A stretch of DNA of 46,029 bases from a virus. The position numbers were made by a program, and so were the translations under genes. A model generated the notes under the pieces. That model was not told the DNA's origin. It did no database searches and saw nothing but the letters and a program-made list of their open reading frames with translations. Positions within the stretch are counted from its first letter, which is position 1; each line of letters begins with the position of its first letter. The stretch is from the UHGV virus genome UHGV-0229940; one strand, given 5' to 3'. Below, in pieces: positions 150 to 35,164 of the stretch.

Positions 150-560
150 ACAGTCTTCTAAAAATACAGGCATAAACAGGCTTATAAGATACCTTGTTAG
201 TACCGTGTTAGACCTTGTGAGATAAGGCCTGTAAAGATATTCCTGTTAAGTTTGTTAAAACAGTCTATATAGAGGCTTAGTAATACCTAGTGAACACCTA
301 TAGAGGGTATCATAGCTTACCTAGAGATTAAGAGGTGTATAGGAGCTTCTAAGAGGATGTAGAGAGATGGTTAAGGTGATTGTATAGATTGTTAAGAAGG
401 CTTGTTAGAAGAGTGTTTAGATGGCTATTTAGAAGGGCTATACAGAGGGCTATTAAGACCACTAGATAGTTACTAAGATACTATATAGTACTATATAACT
501 ATATAGAGAGTAAGATTAAGAAGGTTGTTAAGAAGGATAGATATTTTATTCACATATGAT
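150..560. repeat. Non-coding GA-rich array of degenerate short direct repeats (TTAAGARGG, TAGAGGG, CTATATAG) with almost no C on the plus strand
   Basis: No ORF of 60 aa or more in any frame over 1-640; about 10 copies of AAGAGG-like words spaced roughly 20-30 bp apart; strong strand compositional skew. Confidence 0.7.
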
Positions 561-585
561 GGTGACCCAGAGGTTGGGACAACCG

Positions 586-628
586 ATAAAATTTTATAAA
601 AATTAAAAAGCCCCCAATTAAGGAGGCT
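586..628 (-). terminator. Rho-independent terminator candidate ending the leftward operon
   Basis: Imperfect 7 bp inverted repeat AGCCCCC/GGAGGCT (609-628) followed on the minus strand by a T-rich run (complement of 586-608), just downstream of the stop of CDS 640-1263. Confidence 0.45.
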
Positions 629-639
629 CTTAAGATATT

Positions 640-1263
640 TTAAATCAGGCTTTCTAAAACTGTCTTCAAGGATGACTTAGTTGTCTGGTAAAAATGAGTG
701 AACCCATTATTGTTATCGAATATCTGCATCATGATATCATCTCCCTTGATTGGGTACACTCGGATATCATAGTGAAACCCATTAAAGACAGCAGAACCAT
801 TACAGAACACACTAAAATCACTTGCTGAGATGTACTCTTCATGACCTGTGATTTTTATACAGACACCCTTACTTGGTCTCTTAGGGTTGATATCTTCCAT
901 CACAGACATACTCTGTCCACCAAGAGATACCATAGTGACCACTTTACGGTTCTTCTGTTTAAAGTACATCTTAACTTTCTGCAAAGTGTCTTCATAGAAT
1001 GGATAAGACCTTTCTACAAAGATTCCTTCAAGTGGCTCTTTACCATTTTCAACTTCTCGGTTATGCCGTACTGCAAAGATAATTTGTTCGAACCAGTCAA
1101 GATTTTCTTCGGAGAGTGCTTCCCGAACATCCTTCCAGTCAAGTACTAAGTAGTTACCTTCAACTTCTTTTAAGTTATCTTTTTCCATATCTATCACACC
1201 ATTATCGTAAAACTTGATATTCTGGTACTGCGAATTTATTACTATTGTTCTTGATGAGGTCAT
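640..1263 (-). CDS. hypothetical protein (start may be the internal Met at 1188, which avoids overlap with the upstream gene)
   Basis: 207 aa ORF in six-frame track; overlaps the upstream ORF by 62 nt if the first Met is used. Confidence 0.6.
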   Translation of the reverse strand: MTSSRTIVINSQYQNIKFYDNGVIDMEKDNLKEVEGNYLVLDWKDVREALSEENLDWFEQIIFAVRHNREVENGKEPLEGIFVERSYPFYEDTLQKVKMYFKQKNRKVVTMVSLGGQSMSVMEDINPKRPSKGVCIKITGHEEYISASDFSVFCNGSAVFNGFHYDIRVYPIKGDDIMMQIFDNNNGFTHFYQTTKSSLKTVLESLI

Positions 1264-1666
1264 CCTCTGAAACTAAAAATGTAATACCACATAAGTGTCT
1301 GTAACGACTATCATACTCGAATATCTTAAACAGATATTTACCATCATGATAAACCTGTTGCACTTCACCTTCTGCAACAATCTCGCCTGTAATAAAATTT
1401 TTTAGTTTATACACATTACCAACTTTAGGTACTGTTTTCATCTCAGGCTCTTTTAGTGCTACACCTATTTTTGCATCACCGAGTAAATGAGAACTCTCAA
1501 AAGCTACGTGTTTCATATAAGCTTCTGAGCATTCCCAGATAAAACAATGTACAAGAACCTTAGCAGCATGTCTTGAGCAATTCAACTTATCACAAATCTC
1601 TTTGTACATCTCATCTTTAGTTGAGTTGTCAAGCATTGCTCTTTGCACTACTTCTTTAATTTTCAT
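1202..1666 (-). CDS. hypothetical protein
   Basis: 154 aa ORF; co-oriented and tightly packed with neighbours. Confidence 0.6.
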   Translation of the reverse strand: MKIKEVVQRAMLDNSTKDEMYKEICDKLNCSRHAAKVLVHCFIWECSEAYMKHVAFESSHLLGDAKIGVALKEPEMKTVPKVGNVYKLKNFITGEIVAEGEVQQVYHDGKYLFKIFEYDSRYRHLCGITFLVSEDDLIKNNSNKFAVPEYQVLR

Positions 1667-10297: not shown

Positions 10298-10374
10298 CTC
10301 TGTTTAGCTCAGCTTGGTAGAGCGTTCCGTTTGGGGCGGTAAGGCCGGAGGTTCAAGTCCTCCAACAGAGACCA
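10298..10374 (+). tRNA. tRNA-Pro (anticodon TGG)
   Basis: Manual cloverleaf: acceptor CTCTGTT/AACAGAG, T-arm GGAGG-TTCAAGT-CCTCC, anticodon loop TTTGGGG, CCA encoded. Confidence 0.7.
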
Positions 10375-10381
10375 AATTAAT

Positions 10382-10456
10382 GTTCCAGTAGACAAAATGG
10401 TAAAGTCACCACTCTTTCAAAGTGGATATCTGAGGGTTCAAATCCCTTCTGGAACG
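10382..10456 (+). tRNA. tRNA-Glu (anticodon TTC)
   Basis: Acceptor GTTCCAG/CTGGAAC, anticodon stem CCACT/AGTGG, loop CTTTCAA. Confidence 0.7.
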
Positions 10457-10466
10457 CAAGTTTTGA

Positions 10467-10540
10467 CAGAAGACCAATTACAGCAAACTTAATCTACTCA
10501 TCTGACACGAAATCGGACAAAGAAGATATTTGGTCTGGTC
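10467..10540 (+). ncRNA. inter-tRNA structured spacer element, copy 1 (5' box CAGAAGACC-NNN-TACAGCAA, 3' box GGTCTGG; AGACCAAT pairs with ATTTGGTCT)
   Basis: Conserved boxes with a complementary flank whose sequence differs between copies while pairing is kept. Confidence 0.5.
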
Positions 10541-10549
10541 ATTGAGAAT

Positions 10550-10626
10550 TGCGGGTATAGAGAAAGGGCGTCTCACATGTCTCATTAGCATGGTATCGGC
10601 AGGTTCGACTCCTGCACCCGCCTCCA
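10550..10626 (+). tRNA. tRNA-Met (anticodon CAT); position 1:72 is a T:C mismatch
   Basis: T-arm GCAGG-TTCGACT-CCTGC, acceptor 3' ACCCGCC, anticodon loop CTCATTA, CCA encoded. Confidence 0.6.
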
Positions 10627-10632
10627 ATTTTG

Positions 10633-10694
10633 CAGAAGACCGTATTCAGCAACAAAATACTTTTTGCGGATAAAAGAAAAAACACGGTCTGGCA
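10633..10694 (+). ncRNA. inter-tRNA structured spacer element, copy 2 (AGACCGT pairs with ACGGTCT)
   Basis: Same CAGAAGACC ... CAGCAA 5' box and GGTCTGG 3' box as copy 1, with compensatory change in the pairing flank. Confidence 0.5.
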
Positions 10695-10703
10695 ATGTAT
10701 TAA

Positions 10704-10780
10704 GGTTAGGAAGCACATAAGGTATGTGCGGTCGCCTGTTAAGCGAATGGCACAGGGTTCGAATCCCTGACTAACCGCCA
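10704..10780 (+). tRNA. tRNA-Asn (anticodon GTT)
   Basis: T-arm CAGGG-TTCGAAT-CCCTG, anticodon loop CTGTTAA, CCA encoded. Confidence 0.7.
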
Positions 10781-10788
10781 AATTAAAT

Positions 10789-10876
10789 GTGTCGTTATCC
10801 CGTAGATGGTAGCGGTGGGGACTGTAAATCCCTTGTCATTGAGACTCGGTAGGTTCGACTCCTACACGGCACACCA
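10789..10876 (+). tRNA. tRNA-Tyr (anticodon GTA), long variable arm
   Basis: 88 nt; anticodon stem GGGGA/TCCCT, loop CTGTAAA; T-arm GTAGG-TTCGACT-CCTAC. Confidence 0.7.
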
Positions 10877-10881
10877 ATAAA

Positions 10882-10958
10882 GGCTATGTAGTTTAACTGG
10901 AGAAAATACTCCCCTGTCACGGGAGATGATGTGAGTTCAAGTCTCATCGTAGCCGCCA
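10882..10958 (+). tRNA. tRNA-Asp (anticodon GTC)
   Basis: Anticodon stem CTCCC/GGGAG, loop CTGTCAC; acceptor GGCTATG/CGTAGCC. Confidence 0.7.
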
Positions 10959-11019
10959 ATTTTGAGAGGGCTATTTAGCCCCTCCCTTAAAGAGTTCTTA
11001 CGAGTATTCTTTAAAGGAG

Positions 11020-11095
11020 CAGAAGACCAAATACAGCAAGAATGTATGAAATTTCAAGCCAATTTAATTTTGAAAATTTAAAACTTGGTCTGGCT
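11020..11095 (+). ncRNA. inter-tRNA structured spacer element, copy 3 (AGACCAA pairs with TTGGTCT)
   Basis: Conserved 5' and 3' boxes with covarying complementary flank. Confidence 0.5.
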
Positions 11096-11106
11096 CAACA
11101 AATTTA

Positions 11107-11238
11107 CAGAAGACCGTTTACAGCAAAACTTAAACAATCTATTTCTCCGGTAAAGAAAAGGCGAAGGTTCGATTCCTTCACTCGGCAGATGTCGAGTTGG
11201 TGTAATGGTAGCACTTAAGATGATAAACAACGGTCTGG
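11107..11238 (+). ncRNA. inter-tRNA structured spacer element, copy 4 (AGACCGTT pairs with AACGGTCT), enclosing a permuted tRNA-like segment
   Basis: Same boxes as copies 1-3; internal segment 11139-11214 has tRNA anticodon-arm, T-arm and acceptor-3' features followed by acceptor-5' and D-arm features. Confidence 0.45.
11139..11214 (+). pseudogene. permuted or fragmentary tRNA-like sequence (3' two-thirds precedes a complementary 5' acceptor and D-arm)
   Basis: Anticodon-like stem TTTCT/AGAAA, T-arm GAAGG-TTCGATT-CCTTC, acceptor-3' ACTCGGC, then GTCGAGT (pairs with ACTCGGC) and D-arm GTGTAATGGTAGCAC. Confidence 0.35.
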
Positions 11239-11241
11239 TAA

Positions 11242-11257
11242 TTATCTTTGTAGATAA
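11242..11257. repeat. palindromic hairpin TTATCT-TTGT-AGATAA (left copy)
   Basis: Exact reverse complement of the copy at 11366-11381. Confidence 0.6.
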
Positions 11258-11365
11258 GTTATTAAGCTTACCTGTGAGTATGCGACCACAAAGGGTGAAA
11301 GGGTAAATTCTAGATTTAAACCCAAAAAGGCACATCGCTACAGACCTTAAGCAAGTCTGGGTAGC

Positions 11366-11381
11366 TTATCTACAAAGATAA
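11366..11381. repeat. palindromic hairpin TTATCT-ACAA-AGATAA (right copy, inverted relative to 11242-11257)
   Basis: The two copies bracket a 108 bp segment. Confidence 0.6.
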
Positions 11382-11387
11382 TTTAAT

Positions 11388-11463
11388 GGAAGTGTAGCAG
11401 AATGGTGATGCGGCAGACTTTTAATCTGACAGGCGATGGGTTCGAATCCCTCCACTTCTACCA
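11388..11463 (+). tRNA. tRNA-Lys (anticodon TTT)
   Basis: Anticodon stem CAGA/TCTG, loop CTTTTAA; acceptor GGAAGTG/CACTTCT; CCA encoded. Confidence 0.6.
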
Positions 11464-11467
11464 ATAT

Positions 11468-11544
11468 GGTTCAGTCGCAGATAAGGTAATGCAAGGGTCT
11501 CATAAGCCCTATGAATGTGGGTTCGATTCCCATCTGAACCTCCA
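11468..11544 (+). tRNA. tRNA with CAT anticodon (Met, initiator or Ile-lysidine type; GGG/CCC run in anticodon stem)
   Basis: Perfect acceptor GGTTCAG/CTGAACC, anticodon loop CTCATAA, T-arm GTGGG-TTCGATT-CCCAT. Confidence 0.7.
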
Positions 11545-11545
11545 A

Positions 11546-11621
11546 GCTGGTATAGTTAAGAAGGTTATAACACTCCCCTGATAAGGGAACATCGGTGGTT
11601 CGATTCCACCTACCAGTACCA
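11546..11621 (+). tRNA. tRNA-Ile (anticodon GAT)
   Basis: Anticodon loop CTGATAA; T-arm GGTGG-TTCGATT-CCACC. Confidence 0.65.
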
Positions 11622-11636
11622 ATTTCAATAAAGTTG

Positions 11637-11665
11637 TTGACATTGAGATGTGACTACTTTATAGT
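11637..11665 (+). promoter_or_regulatory. strong sigma70-like promoter inside the tRNA array (TTGACA, 17 nt spacer, TATAGT)
   Basis: -35 at 11637-11642, -10 at 11660-11665. Confidence 0.6.
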
Positions 11666-11868
11666 AACCTTAGTTTTCGTTGCGTAGCGTCTATTTTGCA
11701 AATTTAAAATAAATGCAAACGACAATGTTTTTCTGGCAGTAGCTTGATAGGCTAAACACCAGTGAGGTCTTCCAATCCCTCATCAAAGAATTTGGCGTAC
11801 TAGCCCACGGTATGATTAATAAGGTGGGCATCTTTAAGGGCTTTCTAAGAGAGTCTTTAAAGATTAAT
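11666..11868 (+). ncRNA. about 200 nt promoter-proximal non-tRNA spacer; candidate small stable RNA
   Basis: No ORF and no tRNA fold found; contains stem GCCCAC/GTGGGC (about 11789-11814); downstream of the promoter at 11637. Confidence 0.3.
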
Positions 11869-11945
11869 GCACCCTTAGTTCAATTGGATAGAGCAACGGT
11901 CTTCTAAATCGTTAGTTACAGGTTCGAATCCTGTAGGGTGTGCCA
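11869..11945 (+). tRNA. tRNA-Arg (anticodon TCT)
   Basis: D-arm GTTC-AATTGGATA-GAGC, anticodon stem ACGGT/ATCGT, loop CTTCTAA. Confidence 0.7.
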
Positions 11946-12087
11946 ATTAGTTAGCAGATTACTTAGACGACCTAAGCGGGTCTTCCTGTAGGGAGGTGGT
12001 CTGTATCTCATGTTTTCCAGAACATGTAAATAATCTGAGAAGGGGCTTTACAGTGTTGAGATAATACGGTAAGCTTCGAATTATAAT

Positions 12088-12170
12088 ATGGGACGATGTT
12101 AAGACTCTAAGGCATGAGCAACGGCCTCCAAAACCGTTTCAAAGGGGTTCAACTCCTCCGTCCCATGCCA
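12088..12170 (+). tRNA. tRNA-Trp-like (anticodon CCA) with about 7 extra nucleotides between acceptor and D-arm
   Basis: Perfect acceptor ATGGGAC/GTCCCAT, anticodon stem ACGG/CCGT, loop CTCCAAA; total about 80 nt without CCA. Confidence 0.5.
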
Positions 12171-12183
12171 AAGTCTTATTAGG

Positions 12184-12271
12184 GGTAGGTAGCGGCTAAT
12201 GGTAGCCAAACTGTCTTGAAAACAGTTGCCACTGTAGAGATACGGTGAGGGTTCGACTCCTTTACTTACCG
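12184..12271 (+). tRNA. tRNA-Ser (anticodon TGA), long variable arm
   Basis: Anticodon stem ACTGT/ACAGT, loop CTTGAAA; 88 nt. Confidence 0.7.
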
Positions 12272-12429
12272 CCTAATAAGGTTTAAAGCCAAGCTTCATT
12301 CGGATGTTGCTTTGGTATCCCTCGTGTATTGTCGTACAAGCACAGTAAAGCACCTAGTAGGTGTCACGGAGAAGAGATAATATCAAGCTCTCCAAAGGTT
12401 CTAGTCACCGGATTAAACAAGACTATGCA

Positions 12430-12451
12430 AAGACCTTTTTAGGTCTTTTTA
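12430..12451 (+). terminator. terminator-like hairpin inside the tRNA array (AAGACC-TTTTTA-GGTCTT then T-run)
   Basis: 6 bp perfect stem followed by TTTTT. Confidence 0.4.
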
Positions 12452-12529
12452 GAGGGCTTCTAAGGTTATTACAGCTTGTTGTGGAACCTTGTTGCTTAGG
12501 TTCTTAGAAGTTCTCTAAAAAGATTTAAT

Positions 12530-12607
12530 GGGAGATTGACGGTAATTGGTAAACCTACCATCCTTAGAAGTTGGTGTTTGAGGGTTCGAATCCCTTGTCT
12601 CCTACCA
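12530..12607 (+). tRNA. tRNA with anticodon TAG (Leu decoding) but short variable arm
   Basis: Acceptor GGGAGAT/GTCTCCT, T-arm GAGGG-TTCGAAT-CCCTT, anticodon loop CTTAGAA; 78 nt. Confidence 0.5.
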
Positions 12608-12614
12608 AATTAAT

Positions 12615-12690
12615 GCAGGTGTAGCAAAATGGTTATGCGGCTGACTCTTAATCAGTAAGACGATGGGTTCAATTCCCTCCACCTGTACCA
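12615..12690 (+). tRNA. tRNA-Lys (anticodon CTT)
   Basis: Anticodon stem GCTGA/TCAGT, loop CTCTTAA; paralogous to the Lys-TTT gene. Confidence 0.6.
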
Positions 12691-12696
12691 GACATT

Positions 12697-12772
12697 GGGG
12701 ATGTAGTTTACATGGTTAAAACATAAGTTTTGCAAACTTAAGTACAGGGTTCAATTCCCTGCTTCTCCACCA
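12697..12772 (+). tRNA. tRNA-Ala (anticodon TGC) with G3:U70 identity pair
   Basis: Anticodon stem TAAGT/ACTTA, loop TTTGCAA; G at position 3 opposite T at position 70. Confidence 0.7.
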
Positions 12773-12778
12773 ATTAGT

Positions 12779-12853
12779 GCATCCATAGTTTAAACGGGAA
12801 AATTACAGTCTTCCAAACTGAGGTTGAGGGTTCGATTCCCTCTGGATGCTCCA
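12779..12853 (+). tRNA. tRNA-Gly (anticodon TCC)
   Basis: Perfect acceptor GCATCCA/TGGATGC, anticodon loop CTTCCAA. Confidence 0.7.
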
Positions 12854-12860
12854 AATTAAT

Positions 12861-12937
12861 GCTGCTTTCGTATAATTGGCTATTACACATCCCTTGTAAG
12901 GATGGAAATGCGGGTTCGAGTCCTGTGAGCAGCACCA
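12861..12937 (+). tRNA. tRNA-Thr (anticodon TGT)
   Basis: Anticodon stem CATCC/GGATG, loop CTTGTAA. Confidence 0.7.
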
Positions 12938-13032
12938 ATTCAGAGGTCAAGTGAAAGACCGCTGGTGTCAACTGAAGACCGTAACAAATTCCACGGAGTT
13001 GAGTTAGCGGCACAACTTCAGACCTCTTTCAC

Positions 13033-13107
13033 ACTCGCTTAGTTTATATGGTAAAACATCACCCTTACAAGATGAAGAAAAAGGTTCAAGTCCTTTAGTG
13101 AGTACCA
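13033..13107 (+). tRNA. tRNA-Val (anticodon TAC)
   Basis: T-arm AAAGG-TTCAAGT-CCTTT, anticodon loop CTTACAA. Confidence 0.6.
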
Positions 13108-13108
13108 T

Positions 13109-13186
13109 GTTCCAGTATCCCAATTGGCAGAGGATGCAAGCTCAAACCTTGTATTAGTGACGGTTCGAATCCGTCTTGGAACACCA
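13109..13186 (+). tRNA. tRNA with anticodon CAA (Leu decoding) but short variable arm
   Basis: Acceptor GTTCCAG/TTGGAAC, T-arm GACGG-TTCGAAT-CCGTC, anticodon loop CTCAAAC. Confidence 0.5.
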
Positions 13187-13191
13187 ATTTT

Positions 13192-13267
13192 GCAGGATTA
13201 GTTCAAATGGATAGAGCAACAGTCTACGAAGCTGTTAATAGGGGTTCGAATCCCTTATCCTGCGCCA
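13192..13267 (+). tRNA. tRNA-Arg (anticodon ACG)
   Basis: Perfect acceptor GCAGGAT/ATCCTGC, anticodon loop CTACGAA. Confidence 0.7.
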
Positions 13268-13284
13268 GATAAAAAGGTGATACT

Positions 13285-13527
13285 ATGCAAACATTAACAG
13301 TAGTTGAACATGAAAACTGTGAGAATATTGAGTTTGTCAGGGTCATTGGTGTTGAACACCACATTTTCTTAAAAGTAGGGTACTTATGTGACCCCGCTAG
13401 AGTAGAAAGATTTATACGTGATTGTTTTGGTGGTAGACAGCTAAAGAGTGTTATTTTTGAGACAGTTTTACCAGAAGGTTTAGAAACGAATAATAACATT
13501 TATCTCCTTACAAGGATTAGACGATGA
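13285..13527 (+). CDS. hypothetical protein encoded inside the tRNA array
   Basis: 80 aa ORF with SD AAAGGTGA upstream. Confidence 0.5.
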   Translation: MQTLTVVEHENCENIEFVRVIGVEHHIFLKVGYLCDPARVERFIRDCFGGRQLKSVIFETVLPEGLETNNNIYLLTRIRR

Positions 13528-14081
13528 GATATTTAAAATATGCTTCATGGATTTTCCTAGCTTTGCTAGAACCATTAGCAGCAACCTTAGCAGTTATCTT
13601 AGCACCTTTCGTAGTTCCATTTTACAGTGAGAAGAAAGGCCACTTACCTTTCGGATTTAGATGGATGGAGACATATGACAACCCAATTGATGGTGACGAA
13701 GGTCATATCGAACGATGGGCTAAGATTAGAAAGATTGGTAAGCTGGGTGTCTACATGCAGAGAGTCGGATGGCTCTGGAGAAACAAAGCTTATAACTTCT
13801 CTTACCATGTATTAGGAAGAGATGTAAAAGATGTTACTAAGTGGAAAGGTAATATCAACGTAAGTTCTGACCCTGAAGATAATCAGACAGGTTATCTCCT
13901 AATGTGGAACAGTAATGCTTGGGGATTATTCGCTTTTATCCCATCAATTAAAGTCTTTGGTAAACAGTTTTACTGGAGAATTTATATTGGATGGAAACTA
14001 AAAAGTGTTGTCCCAGAAGAAAGAGCATTCTCAAGGGAAAGAGTTATGTTGGCATTCTTTATTCATCCACTGAGAAAGTAA
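13524..14081 (+). CDS. hypothetical membrane-anchored protein encoded inside the tRNA array
   Basis: 185 aa; N-terminal hydrophobic segment ASWIFLALLEPLAATLAVILAPFVVPF; 4 nt overlap with the upstream ORF. Confidence 0.6.
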   Translation: MRYLKYASWIFLALLEPLAATLAVILAPFVVPFYSEKKGHLPFGFRWMETYDNPIDGDEGHIERWAKIRKIGKLGVYMQRVGWLWRNKAYNFSYHVLGRDVKDVTKWKGNINVSSDPEDNQTGYLLMWNSNAWGLFAFIPSIKVFGKQFYWRIYIGWKLKSVVPEERAFSRERVMLAFFIHPLRK

Positions 14082-14089
14082 AGATTTAA

Positions 14090-14165
14090 AGGGGATTAGT
14101 TTACAAGGTTAAAACCTCGGTCTTTGAAATCGAAGAAGTTGGTTCAATTCCAACATCCCCCGCCA
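14090..14165 (+). tRNA. tRNA-Gln (anticodon TTG), weak 1:72 pair
   Basis: D-stem GTTT/AAAC, anticodon stem TCGGT/ATCGA, loop CTTTGAA. Confidence 0.65.
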
Positions 14166-14167
14166 AT

Positions 14168-14246
14168 GCTCCATTACTCCAATTGGCAGAGAGGCCAGAC
14201 TTAAAATCTGTGTTATGTATCGGTTCGAATCCGATATGGAGTACCA
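14168..14246 (+). tRNA. tRNA with anticodon TAA (Leu decoding) but short variable arm
   Basis: Acceptor GCTCCAT/ATGGAGT, T-arm ATCGG-TTCGAAT-CCGAT, anticodon loop CTTAAAA. Confidence 0.5.
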
Positions 14247-14251
14247 AATTT

Positions 14252-14327
14252 AGCGGTATAGCATAACTGGCAATGCAACAGTCTCTGAAGCTGTCCTATT
14301 AAGGTTCAAATCCTTATGCCGCTGCCA
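14252..14327 (+). tRNA. tRNA-Gln (anticodon CTG)
   Basis: Anticodon stem ACAGT/GCTGT, loop CTCTGAA. Confidence 0.6.
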
Positions 14328-14358
14328 CTTCTAAGGGTTCTTACGAGAGTCCTTAAAT

Positions 14359-14434
14359 GTGGCCTTATCATAAATGGTAATGACCCATGCTGTGAACATG
14401 GTCTATACGGGTTCAAATCCCGTAGGTCACCCCA
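14359..14434 (+). tRNA. tRNA-His (anticodon GTG)
   Basis: Anticodon stem CCATG/CATGG, loop CTGTGAA; T-arm ACGGG-TTCAAAT-CCCGT. Confidence 0.7.
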
Positions 14435-14439
14435 ATTTA

Positions 14440-14516
14440 TAGTCCAAGTAGCTTATATGGTTAAAGCGCGTGTCTGAAAAACATGAGAAGAGGGTTCAAA
14501 TCCCACTGGACTACCA
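14440..14516 (+). tRNA. tRNA-Phe (anticodon GAA)
   Basis: Perfect acceptor TAGTCCA/TGGACTA, anticodon loop CTGAAAA. Confidence 0.65.
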
Positions 14517-14532
14517 ATTTCAAAGGTGCTTA

Positions 14533-15267
14533 ATGAAAGAGATGACAGAACAAGGTAAGGAGATTTTTAATCTCTTAAAAACCGGTAAAGGGTTTTCTAA
14601 CCCACTTATTACTGGTGCAGCAGTTCTCGGTGGAACCGTAGCTGCTTCTACATCACTTGTAAGCTCTATTAGTTCTGTAACAGACCCTACAATGCAGGAG
14701 AAACTTGTTGCTGCTGGACTTACAACAGTCCTTCTAAACAGCTTTACAACAAGCCTTACAAGCACTACAGCAACTACTAAGACCCTGACAGACTACGGTC
14801 AAAAATCTATTGATGAGTTTTCATCACGTATGCAGGTAGCAAAGGGATATTCCAATGTTATGGGTGCAGCAGGAGAACAAGTTGGTTGTACACCGTTCAG
14901 TGGTATTATGGGTGTTGCTACAGAATATGGTCAAAAAGCTATTGATACGATTAACAGTACACTAGAGAGTGTTAACGATGTATTAAGTGACTTACAAGAC
15001 GCTATTGACAAGGGTCTTGATACTGTTTCTGATTTAGCTAACCAAGCTGTCAGTAAGATTAATGAAGGTATCTCAAAGATTACAGCTTATGCAGATGAAG
15101 TTGTGCAGATGATTGAAGAAGAAGCTGCCCTTATTGCAGAGTACCTTAAAACGAATATCAATGGGTTCTTAGCAGGTATCTTACCAGACTGGTTTGATGA
15201 TGCCTGTAAAACTGGTGTAATTGACACTATTGCAACACCAGAAATGAAGAACGCATTACAGAAATAA
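14533..15267 (+). CDS. hypothetical Ser/Thr-rich protein encoded inside the tRNA array
   Basis: Six-frame ORF 14470-15267 would overlap two tRNAs, so start is placed at Met 14533 (MKEMTEQ ...); 244 aa. Confidence 0.6.
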   Translation: MKEMTEQGKEIFNLLKTGKGFSNPLITGAAVLGGTVAASTSLVSSISSVTDPTMQEKLVAAGLTTVLLNSFTTSLTSTTATTKTLTDYGQKSIDEFSSRMQVAKGYSNVMGAAGEQVGCTPFSGIMGVATEYGQKAIDTINSTLESVNDVLSDLQDAIDKGLDTVSDLANQAVSKINEGISKITAYADEVVQMIEEEAALIAEYLKTNINGFLAGILPDWFDDACKTGVIDTIATPEMKNALQK

Positions 15268-15361
15268 TGGAAGATTAACCCTAAAAGGTAAGGGAGCAGT
15301 TTGCTAAACTGCCAGTAGCTGAGAAATCGGTGTACCAGTTCAAGTCTGGTATCTTCCTCCA
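15268..15361 (+). tRNA. tRNA-Ser (anticodon GCT), long variable arm
   Basis: Perfect acceptor GGAAGAT/ATCTTCC, anticodon stem GCAGT/ACTGC, loop TTGCTAA; 94 nt. Confidence 0.7.
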
Positions 15362-15365
15362 ATTT

Positions 15366-15441
15366 GAATCCGTGACAGAAATGGCTATGTGCCTGTCTGC
15401 AAAACAGGTTTATAAGGGTTCGAGTCCCTTCGGATTCTCCA
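15366..15441 (+). tRNA. tRNA-Cys (anticodon GCA)
   Basis: Perfect acceptor GAATCCG/CGGATTC, anticodon stem CCTGT/ACAGG, loop CTGCAAA. Confidence 0.7.
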
Positions 15442-24616: not shown

Positions 24617-25969
24617 ATGTGGAATCCAATTGTTAATGTAGATATTACATTGAACACCGCAGGAACTACAAGAGAAGGTTTTGGTTTGCCACTATTCTTA
24701 GCTTCAACAGATAATTTTGAAGAAAGAGTACGTGGTTACACTTCCTTAACTGAAGTTGCTGAAGATTTCGATGAGAATACTGCTGCATATAAGGCTGCTA
24801 AACAACTTTGGAGTCAGACTCCTAAAGTAACTCAGCTTTATATTGGTAGACGTGCTATGCAGTACACTGTCTCAATTCCTAATGCCGTTGCTGAAAGTAC
24901 AGACTACTCAATTACTGTAGCTGCTGGCGGTGGAATTTCTCAACCATATCAGTATACAGCGCAAGCTGAAGACACTGCTGAAAACGTGTTGCAACAGTTT
25001 AAAACACAGATTGAAGCTGACCCAACAATCAAAGATAAGGTTTCTGTGAACGTAACTGGTAGCAATGGCTCTGCCACAATGATTATTACCAAAGCTGGTG
25101 ATAATGACTTTGTGAAAGTAACAACTACAGCACAGACTGTGTATATTGCAAGTACAACTGCCGATACAGCATCAACTGCTCTGGCAGCTATCGAAGCTTA
25201 CTCTACTGACTGGTATTTCATTGCAGCAGAAGACAGAACTCAACAGTTTGTCTTAGCAATGGCTTCTGAGATTCAGGCTCGCAAGAAAATCTTCTTTACA
25301 GCTAACTCCGATGTAACAGCCCTGCAAGGTACAGAATTAGCCAGTGCAAATGATGTTCCAGCACAGCTTGCTAAGAATATGTACACTCGTACAGTTTGCT
25401 TGTGGCATCACGCAGCAGCAGAAGACTATCCAGAGATGGCATACATTGCTTATGGCGCTCCATATGATGCAGGTTCAATTGCTTGGGGTAATGCTCAGCT
25501 AACTGGTGTAGCAGCTTCTCTACAACCATCTAATCAGAGACCTCTGACAAGTATTCAGAAGTCTGCTTTAGATGTACGTCACTGTAACTTTATTGACCTT
25601 GATGGTGGTGTTCCAGTGGTTCGTAGAGGGATTACTTCTGGTGGGGAATGGATTGATATCGTCCGTGGCGTTGACTGGTTAGAATCAGACCTGAAAACTT
25701 CTCTGAGAGACTTGCTAATTAACCAGAAGGGTGGTAAGATTACTTATGATGATACTGGTATTACCCGTATTCGTCAAGTCATTGAAACCTCTCTACAAAG
25801 AGCAGTCAACAGAAACTTCCTGTCATCTTACACAGTTAATGTTCCTAAAGCCTCTCAAGTTGCTTTGGCAGACAAGAAAGCTCGTATCCTGAAAGATGTT
25901 ACCTTCGCAGGTATCTTAGCAGGGGCTATCTTGGATGTTGACTTGAAAGGTACAGTGGCTTACGAATAA
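24617..25969 (+). CDS. tail sheath protein (assignment by size and order)
   Basis: 450 aa ORF immediately upstream of a 148 aa tube-sized ORF. Confidence 0.6.
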   Translation: MWNPIVNVDITLNTAGTTREGFGLPLFLASTDNFEERVRGYTSLTEVAEDFDENTAAYKAAKQLWSQTPKVTQLYIGRRAMQYTVSIPNAVAESTDYSITVAAGGGISQPYQYTAQAEDTAENVLQQFKTQIEADPTIKDKVSVNVTGSNGSATMIITKAGDNDFVKVTTTAQTVYIASTTADTASTALAAIEAYSTDWYFIAAEDRTQQFVLAMASEIQARKKIFFTANSDVTALQGTELASANDVPAQLAKNMYTRTVCLWHHAAAEDYPEMAYIAYGAPYDAGSIAWGNAQLTGVAASLQPSNQRPLTSIQKSALDVRHCNFIDLDGGVPVVRRGITSGGEWIDIVRGVDWLESDLKTSLRDLLINQKGGKITYDDTGITRIRQVIETSLQRAVNRNFLSSYTVNVPKASQVALADKKARILKDVTFAGILAGAILDVDLKGTVAYE

Positions 25970-25984
25970 TAGAGGTAAATTGGA

Positions 25985-26431
25985 ATGGCTATGTATCAGC
26001 AATATTCCCCTAAAGACGTTGTATGTAGCTGGAATGGTATTGCCATTGAAGGCTTTGCCCCAGATTCATTCTTGCGTCTACAGAGAACATCACCGCTTGT
26101 GACACCAGTTGTTGGTGCAGGTGGTCAAGTTGCTCTGACAAGAAATGCAGACAAGACAGGTACTATTGAGATTGAGTTAATGCAGACTTCTCTCTCTAAC
26201 CAGATGCTTTCTGCAATTCAAGCTAAACAAGACAATATGGAACTTGAAGAAGATATCTCTTCTAACTTCGTAATCTACGACCCATCAGGCTCTGTTCTGG
26301 CAACTGGTATTAATGCTTGGTTGCAGGAATTACCGCAGATTGAACTTGGTCGTGACCAGAACTCTAAAACTTGGATTTTTGGTTGTGAGAAGCTAGACTA
26401 CACTTCTACAATTCCAGCGTCAAGTGTTTAA
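25985..26431 (+). CDS. tail tube protein (assignment by size and order)
   Basis: 148 aa ORF followed by a strong terminator. Confidence 0.6.
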   Translation: MAMYQQYSPKDVVCSWNGIAIEGFAPDSFLRLQRTSPLVTPVVGAGGQVALTRNADKTGTIEIELMQTSLSNQMLSAIQAKQDNMELEEDISSNFVIYDPSGSVLATGINAWLQELPQIELGRDQNSKTWIFGCEKLDYTSTIPASSV

Positions 26432-26443
26432 TAAATCCTATAA

Positions 26444-26475
26444 GGGGGAGACTTTAAAAGGTCTTCCCCTTTTTT
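26444..26475 (+). terminator. Rho-independent terminator after the tail tube gene
   Basis: 9 bp stem GGGGGAGAC/GTCTTCCCC with 8 nt loop, followed by TTTTTTGTTT. Confidence 0.7.
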
Positions 26476-26504: not shown

Positions 26505-26903
26505 ATGAAAACAGAATCTAGAGTAATTAATGGCAAGAAAGTAAATATCGTTCTGCTTGGGGCAAGAGATGGTATTAAGATGTCTATGAAGTTGGGTAAA
26601 ATTGTTGTTCCAACTTTTGCACAGATGCTATCAAGTCTGACTGATAAAGATAAGAAAGAAGCTCCAATGGTTCCATTTAAAGAACTTGTTGAAGCTTGTT
26701 TTGACAGAATTGAAGAAATTAACCTTGAAGAAATGGCTACCCTGTTATTTCAAGGGGCAACTGTTGACGACTTCCCCCTTAATATTGATACGTACTTCCA
26801 AGCAAACTACGGTGAGTTTATTGATTACTTAGCATTTGCGCTGGAGGCAAACTTCGGAAGTTTTTTCGAAGCAAGCATTTTCAAAAGCCTAACTTCTCAG
26901 TAA
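26505..26903 (+). CDS. tail assembly chaperone (upstream frame)
   Basis: 132 aa ORF directly upstream of the tape measure gene; slippery heptamer near its 3' end. Confidence 0.65.
   Translation: MKTESRVINGKKVNIVLLGARDGIKMSMKLGKIVVPTFAQMLSSLTDKDKKEAPMVPFKELVEACFDRIEEINLEEMATLLFQGATVDDFPLNIDTYFQANYGEFIDYLAFALEANFGSFFEASIFKSLTSQ
26861..26867 (+). other. putative -1 programmed ribosomal frameshift site T_TTT_TTC
   Basis: Heptamer in XXXYYYZ form in the zero frame (AGT TTT TTC); the -1 frame is open from here into ORF 26906-27145. Confidence 0.5.
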
Positions 26904-26905
26904 AC

Positions 26906-27144
26906 ATGGGTAACACTCTACAGACACCACTAACTGATGCTGCTGTAGAGGCAACCTATGAAGAAGCAGACGAGATGAAATTTGTGCTTGCTATTTATGG
27001 TATGGAAGGGTGTAAAGAAACACTTGACCAACTCTTTGCTATGACATTCTCTGATTTATTATCATTGAGACAATTTCTTGAGATTCAGAGGTCGTATAAA
27101 GAGGAAATTGCTTACAACGAACTTAGAAGAGCAGGAAAAATGTA

Positions 27145-27145
<1 letters not shown>
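26906..27145 (+). CDS. tail assembly chaperone, downstream frame (likely expressed as a frameshift fusion with 26505-26903)
   Basis: 79 aa ORF in the -1 frame relative to the upstream chaperone. Confidence 0.55.

Positions 27146-35164
<8,019 letters not shown>

Follow-up and report, generated by a model that had tools for sequence, protein, structure and literature searches.

We find that the heptamer T_TTT_TTC at positions 26861-26867 of the window, the whole 46,029-nucleotide stretch of virus genome UHGV-0229940, is very probably a functional programmed -1 ribosomal frameshift site that fuses two tail-chaperone reading frames. The window is from a Felixounavirus (a Felix O1-like myophage): the 901 bases around the site are 99.0% identical to those of XTG1 and radambza, and a DNA search with this segment matched 300 phage records. 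The first-pass annotation had proposed that the site reproduces the conserved chaperone frameshift of the lambda G/GT type upstream of the tape measure gene, and this proposal is supported by the gene order, the tail assembly chaperone families, the conservation of the heptamer, the missing starts in relatives, and existing joined coding sequences. The reading of the site therefore stands, and the correction that we make concerns novelty: the feature is already known and is annotated in phages Mushroom and Mordin. The chaperone frameshift upstream of the tape measure gene has been textbook material since 2004 and has been reported for Felix O1-like phages since 2015; the tail-chaperone frameshift of these phages is an ordinary example of the lambda G/GT type.

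The site lies in a series of tail genes (sheath, tube, tail assembly chaperone ORF, -1 ORF, and tape measure) whose order is the same in distant loci. The tail sheath gene (24617-25969) is followed on the plus strand by the tail tube gene (25985..26431; Pfam KPP10_Orf10; phrog_280), which is the immediate 5′ neighbor of the zero-frame chaperone ORF (26505..26903, plus strand, 132 aa). The 132-aa ORF matches PF21822 Phage_TAC_15 over residues 9-124 with 71.5 bits (gathering cutoff 22; E 1.2e-19) and phrog_1613 "tail assembly chaperone" (7.9e-49), and its start at 26505 has a normal Shine–Dalgarno sequence (-6.1 kcal/mol). The -1 frame segment that would be read after the shift (26867..27145, plus strand) consists of 13 trans-frame codons (RSKHFQKPNFSVN) and the 79-codon ORF 26906-27145, an analogue of the lambda T domain that matches phrog_4963 "tail assembly chaperone" (2.8e-55) and for which gene callers use the plus-strand ATG at 26906..26908. 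The tape measure protein gene (27145..29373, plus strand; phrog_4036, E 0; Pfam TMP_3) begins with an ATG that overlaps the stop codon of the -1 ORF (ATGTAATGG), base 27145 being shared as the A of the ATG. A PDB sequence search with the 213-aa fusion returned nothing meaningful (best E 0.62), prophage copies sought in GTDB representative genomes yielded no relatives, and an Rfam scan of the whole window found tRNAs only and no frameshift element family. A strong intrinsic terminator at 26442-26471 (T-run to 26481), with a 13-bp stem containing 6 GC pairs followed by TTTTGTTTCT, separates the tail tube gene from the chaperone gene; the XTG1 and Mordin records carry a terminator feature for it, and it probably lowers transcription of the chaperone and tape measure genes relative to the sheath and tube genes. 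Elsewhere in the window, 26 tRNA genes are arrayed at 10298-15441, and the array includes tRNA-Phe(GAA) (14441-14516), tRNA-Glu(UUC) (10382-10457), and tRNA-Arg(ACG) (13192-13267), which read both codons of the slip site and the codon that follows it in either frame, zero or -1.

In the zero frame, the sequence TTTTTTC at 26861-26867 is read within GGA AGT TTT TTC GAA (G S F F E), which sets the phasing T_TTT_TTC. Eleven zero-frame codons lie 3′ of the heptamer, followed by the TAA stop at 26901-26903, and the distance from the end of the heptamer to the last base of this stop is 36 nt; both the sequence and the phasing are as the first-pass annotation had described them. Its further claim, that the -1 frame is open from the heptamer into ORF 26906-27145 and ends at the tape measure start, also holds: this frame is open from 26825 onward, takes in ATG 26906, and closes with the TAA at 27143-27145. 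A shift at the heptamer is predicted to give join(26505..26867, 26867..27145), a product of 213 aa with the junction ...EANFGSFF/RSKHFQKPNFSVNMGNTLQ.... Among the long plus-strand ORFs of the window, X_XXY_YYZ heptamers occur in frame at 40 per 8653 codon positions (0.46% per codon), and T_TTT_TTC occurs in frame a single time, at 26861-26867. The chance expectation for an X_XXY_YYZ heptamer in the 26-codon overlap is about 0.12, and for this reason the heptamer alone is not significant; the site rises above chance because the heptamer is conserved in relatives.

Relatives were gathered by DNA and protein searches of GenBank phages, from IMG/VR, and by retrieval of annotated regions, giving a sample of 60 loci: 58 tabulated loci, which have 23 distinct sequences around the site, and the Vequintavirinae phages CR8 and Av-05. 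The arrangement xxT TTT TTC is found in phase in 58 of the 58 tabulated loci (23 of 23 distinct sequences) and in CR8 and Av-05. The tabulated taxa comprise Felixounavirus, Mooglevirus, SUSP1/2, Kolesnikvirus (Erwinia), Yersinia phage P778, Pectobacterium phage Wc4-1, LPML1, and IMG/VR groups, and the metagenomic groups that keep the heptamer include sequences of 46% GC and sequences of 57-65% GC at 26-31% protein identity. The Phe pair at the site is fixed as TTT then TTC, with no synonymous change in the 23 distinct sequences, and the Ser codon before it is AGT in 22 of 22 cases, where six Ser codons are possible; the sole non-Ser residue, Asp, is encoded by GAT, likewise with a final T. Synonymous variation does occur at invariant residues nearby (Phe -9 is TTT in 14 and TTC in 9 sequences, Asn -4 is AAC in 15 and AAT in 8, and Ala -8 uses four codons). 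By these alignments, the need to encode the protein does not account for how well the heptamer and the frame arrangement are kept in diverged homologues, down to about 27% identity.

Most loci were recovered via peptide motifs beside the site, so the sample is biased toward relatives that keep the region; this bias is partly offset because the Vequintavirinae matches were found independently of the motif. CR8 and Av-05 were recovered by whole-domain tblastn at about 28% identity without use of the motif adjacent to the slip site, and they contain TGT TTT TTC in phase within a different local motif (VNYGCFF), followed by a -1 ORF that extends to just before the tape measure gene. GenBank lists the chaperone region of these two phages as two unjoined hypothetical proteins. 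In the most distant Erwinia phage records (H98-H100), only window positions 26850-26890, which correspond to the slip site and its dual-coding flank, still match at the nucleotide level (92.7% identity). The combination of T_TTT_TTC and the -1 architecture was also observed in IMG/VR loci L048-L057 (57-65% GC) and in the Vequintavirinae loci L058 (position 1548) and L059 (position 1473). For the GC-rich loci, codon usage gives a probability of about 0.02-0.13 per lineage, a rough estimate only because it is built on crude stop-to-stop ORFs. One heptamer unchanged over 39% to 65% GC, 26-31% protein identity, and two phage subfamilies is a modest addition to what is known, as is a possible Shine–Dalgarno-like stimulator 5′ of the site, and a chaperone family with a constant heptamer provides a clean natural test set for selection on slippery sites.

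Selection acts on the -1 frame from the heptamer on, as the codons after it show. The first -1 codon after the heptamer is CGN (Arg) in 23 of 23 distinct tabulated sequences; read in the zero frame, this place encodes E, D, A, or G, and the zero-frame tails 3′ of the heptamer differ widely in length and sequence among relatives. With a 92-aa trans-frame query that starts at this Arg, tblastn gave at least 80% query coverage in 295 of 295 matching records. These observations bear directly on the possibility that the two ORFs are separate genes, in which case the 79-aa ORF would be made only from ATG 26906, for example by termination–reinitiation, and the T-run would be an accident of Ser-Phe-Phe coding. 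The position of ATG 26906, 2 nt past the zero-frame stop at 26901-26903, would suit such coupling, most GenBank records annotate two CDSs, and about 0.12 heptamers are expected in the overlap by chance; against this stand the conservation of the heptamer-to-ATG codons in the -1 frame, including the invariant Arg, and the lack of synonymous variation in the heptamer codons, whose neighbors vary. Moreover, ATG 26906 has no Shine–Dalgarno sequence, its anti-Shine–Dalgarno duplex (+0.7 kcal/mol) being the weakest of 31 ORF starts (median -6.0), and it is probably not a main initiation site. The homologous domains of Kolesnikvirus, Wc4-1, LPML1, and P778 have no start codon equivalent to ATG 26906. 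In Kolesnikvirus the first start codon of the -1 ORF lies 41 to 57 codons 3′ of the heptamer (the first ATG at 59), inside the conserved domain; the starts that precede any ATG in the -1 ORF are TTG only in P778 and GTG only in Wc4-1 and LPML1. The site of the shift is pinned by P778, where only 3 nt of open -1 frame precede the heptamer and the zero frame ends 30 nt past it. We regard two independently translated genes as very improbable, although some termination–reinitiation at ATG 26906 may occur in Felixounavirus; the downstream domain probably depends on the shift and is without an independent start in several relatives.

The homopolymeric T6 run could instead act during transcription, with RNA polymerase adding one U on the run and a subset of mRNAs thereby carrying the two ORFs in frame, and a weak hairpin at 26841-26857 directly 5′ of the run forms a terminator-like match with it. 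In bacteria, efficient transcriptional slippage needs runs of about 8-9 or more, but the run here is exactly six T in 25 of 25 distinct sequences (the 23 together with CR8 and Av-05) and never longer; in each of these sequences the base before the run is G or A, the base after it is C, and the phasing is X_XXY_YYZ. The terminator-like match was rejected as an element of the site, as it is not conserved in relatives and about 0.9 such matches are expected by chance, and we consider transcriptional slippage, too, highly unlikely. Least credible of all is a shift elsewhere in the overlap, such as single-tRNA slippage on the U_UUC tetramer at 26879-26882: ATT TTC at 26877-26882 does give Z_ZZN 12 nt after the heptamer, a weaker second slip candidate, and the surrounding stretch GCATTTTCAAAA is likewise conserved in Felixounavirus, Mooglevirus, Kolesnikvirus, and LPML1. 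The tetramer, however, is conserved in that group only; Wc4-1, IMG/VR groups L042-L057, and Vequintavirinae have the heptamer but no tetramer. Moreover, the -1 frame Arg that is conserved precedes 26879-26882, and heptamers are generally far more efficient than tetramers according to PMC4066793.

The search for a downstream stimulatory structure, which the first-pass annotation had suggested, found no conserved one: the consensus fold of a nine-lineage alignment 3′ of the site has an energy of -0.88 kcal/mol and lacks covariation. A single stable hairpin forms locally, at 26905-26960, with an 8-bp core (CUCUACAG/CUGUAGAG), and the segment 26868-26960 folds at -23.9 kcal/mol (z -2.7). Because this hairpin begins some 45 nt beyond the site, on the 3′ side, and its conservation is limited to close relatives, we rejected it as a stimulator; its outer stem pairs with ATG 26906. 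A hairpin that includes the heptamer itself (CUUCGGAA/UUUCGAAG) was likewise rejected, as it is not conserved in relatives.

On the 5′ side, an internal Shine–Dalgarno-like GGAGG (26843..26847, plus strand) lies 13 nt from the heptamer, and its pairing with the 16S 3′ end (-9.3 kcal/mol) is in the top 0.7% of positions, the median for gene-start Shine–Dalgarno sequences in the window being -6.0. In dnaX-type systems, the Shine–Dalgarno-like stimulator is spaced about 10-14 nt 5′ of the slip site and the hairpin or pseudoknot 5-9 nt 3′ of it. PMC4066793 describes a search for 5′ Shine–Dalgarno-like stimulators over a range of 6-17 nt, and the GGAGG at 13 nt falls within that range. Of 14 lineages, 11 have GAGG or GGAGG 5′ of the heptamer, GC-rich lineages among them; the three without it are Kolesnikvirus, LPML1, and P778. 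The GGAGG also has a coding role, in the conserved residues L-E-A, and GAG accounts for only 28% of the Glu codons in the window. We can only speculate that the GGAGG is a dnaX-like frameshift stimulator, because the L-E-A coding overlaps it and three lineages are without the element. A cassette of xxT TTT TTC followed by CGN (Arg) is common to the sampled Ounavirinae, Vequintavirinae, and GC-rich metagenomic phages, whose chaperones are all of the Phage_TAC_15 type, and most lineages of the Ounavirinae type also have the strong internal GGAGG 13 nt 5′ of the heptamer. It is rather doubtful, in our estimation, that this cassette is an ancient frameshift signal stimulated by Shine–Dalgarno pairing as in dnaX, and not a bare slippery site; if true, no earlier tail-chaperone frameshift would have had a defined 5′ stimulator.

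For the programmed frameshift at T_TTT_TTC, we infer ribosomal slippage, its efficiency, and the protein–protein roles of the products as follows. Most ribosomes would translate 26505-26903 and release the 132-aa chaperone, and a minority would pause with tRNA-Phe on UUU in the P site and tRNA-Phe on UUC in the A site of U_UUU_UUC. A tandem slip of one base back to UUU_UUU would place CGA as the next codon, to be read as Arg, and reading would go on in the shifted (-1) frame as far as the stop at 27143-27145, yielding the 213-aa fusion. PMC4066793 names UUY codons and all-pyrimidine heptamers among the frameshift-prone classes in E. coli. By analogy with lambda, for which the functional model of the G and GT roles is reviewed in PMC5009743, the shared N-terminal domain may serve as a coat on the tape measure protein, recruitment of the tail tube protein may fall to the C-terminal domain that only frameshifting produces, and a low shift rate would fix the proportion of the 132-aa to the 213-aa product.

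The predicted fusion agrees with deposited records. RefSeq NC_041923 (Salmonella phage Mushroom, Felixounavirus) has a joined CDS (339..979 in locus L010) whose coordinates equal those of the join that we derived, and YP_009600435.1 is exactly the derived Mushroom fusion, which is one residue (S5F) from the 213-aa fusion of the window. Citrobacter phage Mordin has the same join (CDS 845..1482 in locus L009), and its derived fusion equals the deposited protein; the frameshift is also stated for Citrobacter phages Moogle, Michonne, and Mijalis (PMC4319497, PMC4591319, PMC5543628). The existing joined-CDS annotations in Felix O1-like phages are predictions, and our literature searches found no report of fusion detection or shift measurement in these phages. 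A literature search for "TTTTTTC" with tail assembly chaperone returned no papers, and the PhageMaP paper on a non-model phage, reached through a Felixounavirus search, contained nothing on chaperone genes. XTG1, radambza, Felix O1, and most other records carry two separate CDSs without a join. The records of Kolesnikvirus, Wc4-1, and LPML1 have about 236 nt unannotated before the tape measure gene, or a 37-aa fragment only, and the frameshift-only domain sits in that gap (loci L002, L004, L005, and L008, at about 1570-1805 in L002; locus L006, 1372-1485). For annotation, this means that Felixounavirus and Kolesnikvirus records should carry a ribosomal-slippage join and that the relevant product is the 213-aa (or similar) fusion. 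Two further irregularities in the databases came to our attention. Ounavirinae-type sequences are deposited under unlikely hosts in OK283618 (Listeria phage LPML1), MG065664 (Campylobacter phage A132), and WP_252560994 (Staphylococcus hyicus), probably through contamination or host misassignment; the A132 T domain is 100% identical to the Felixounavirus T domain. In addition, OQ871556/OQ871557 (SUT_S820/S920) and LR597658 (VpaE1_ev108) give the name "head closure protein" to the chaperone ORFs, probably through an annotation offset error.

Three known systems offer comparisons. The E. coli dnaX site may resemble the present one in having a strong anti-Shine–Dalgarno element 5′ of the slip site (here GGAGG at 13 nt, -9.3 kcal/mol, missing in three lineages and confounded with the L-E-A codons), but dnaX also has a strong 3′ hairpin, uses A_AAA_AAG, and yields a product truncated by the shift, whereas no conserved 3′ structure was found here. 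The resemblance to lambda G/GT is one of architecture: the two ORFs sit between the tube (major tail) gene and the tape measure gene, and the second, in the -1 frame, shares the 3′ end of the first and runs past its stop, with the heptamer inside the overlap. Lambda, however, is a siphovirus that slips on G_GGA_AAG, and there is no detectable sequence similarity. The lambda G/GT -1 frameshift was reportedly described by Levin et al. in 1993, and Xu, Hendrix, and Duda are said to have recognized the conserved tail-chaperone frameshift in tailed phages in 2004. The 132-aa zero-frame chaperone is the analogue of lambda gpG and of P2 gpE. In P2 E/E+E′ (Christie et al. 2002; described in PMC3091744), the shift occurs on TTTTTTG without a downstream structure. 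The P2 heptamer differs from the TTTTTTC of the window in its A-site tRNA (Leu in P2, Phe here), the P2 products are of 91 and 142 aa against 132 and 213 aa here, and the proteins belong to another family; the two systems are likened by mechanism and heptamer. The likeness to P2 takes in a contractile tail, a chaperone pair 5′ of the tape measure gene, a T-rich heptamer with no downstream RNA structure, and two products, predicted in the window, that share their N-terminus.
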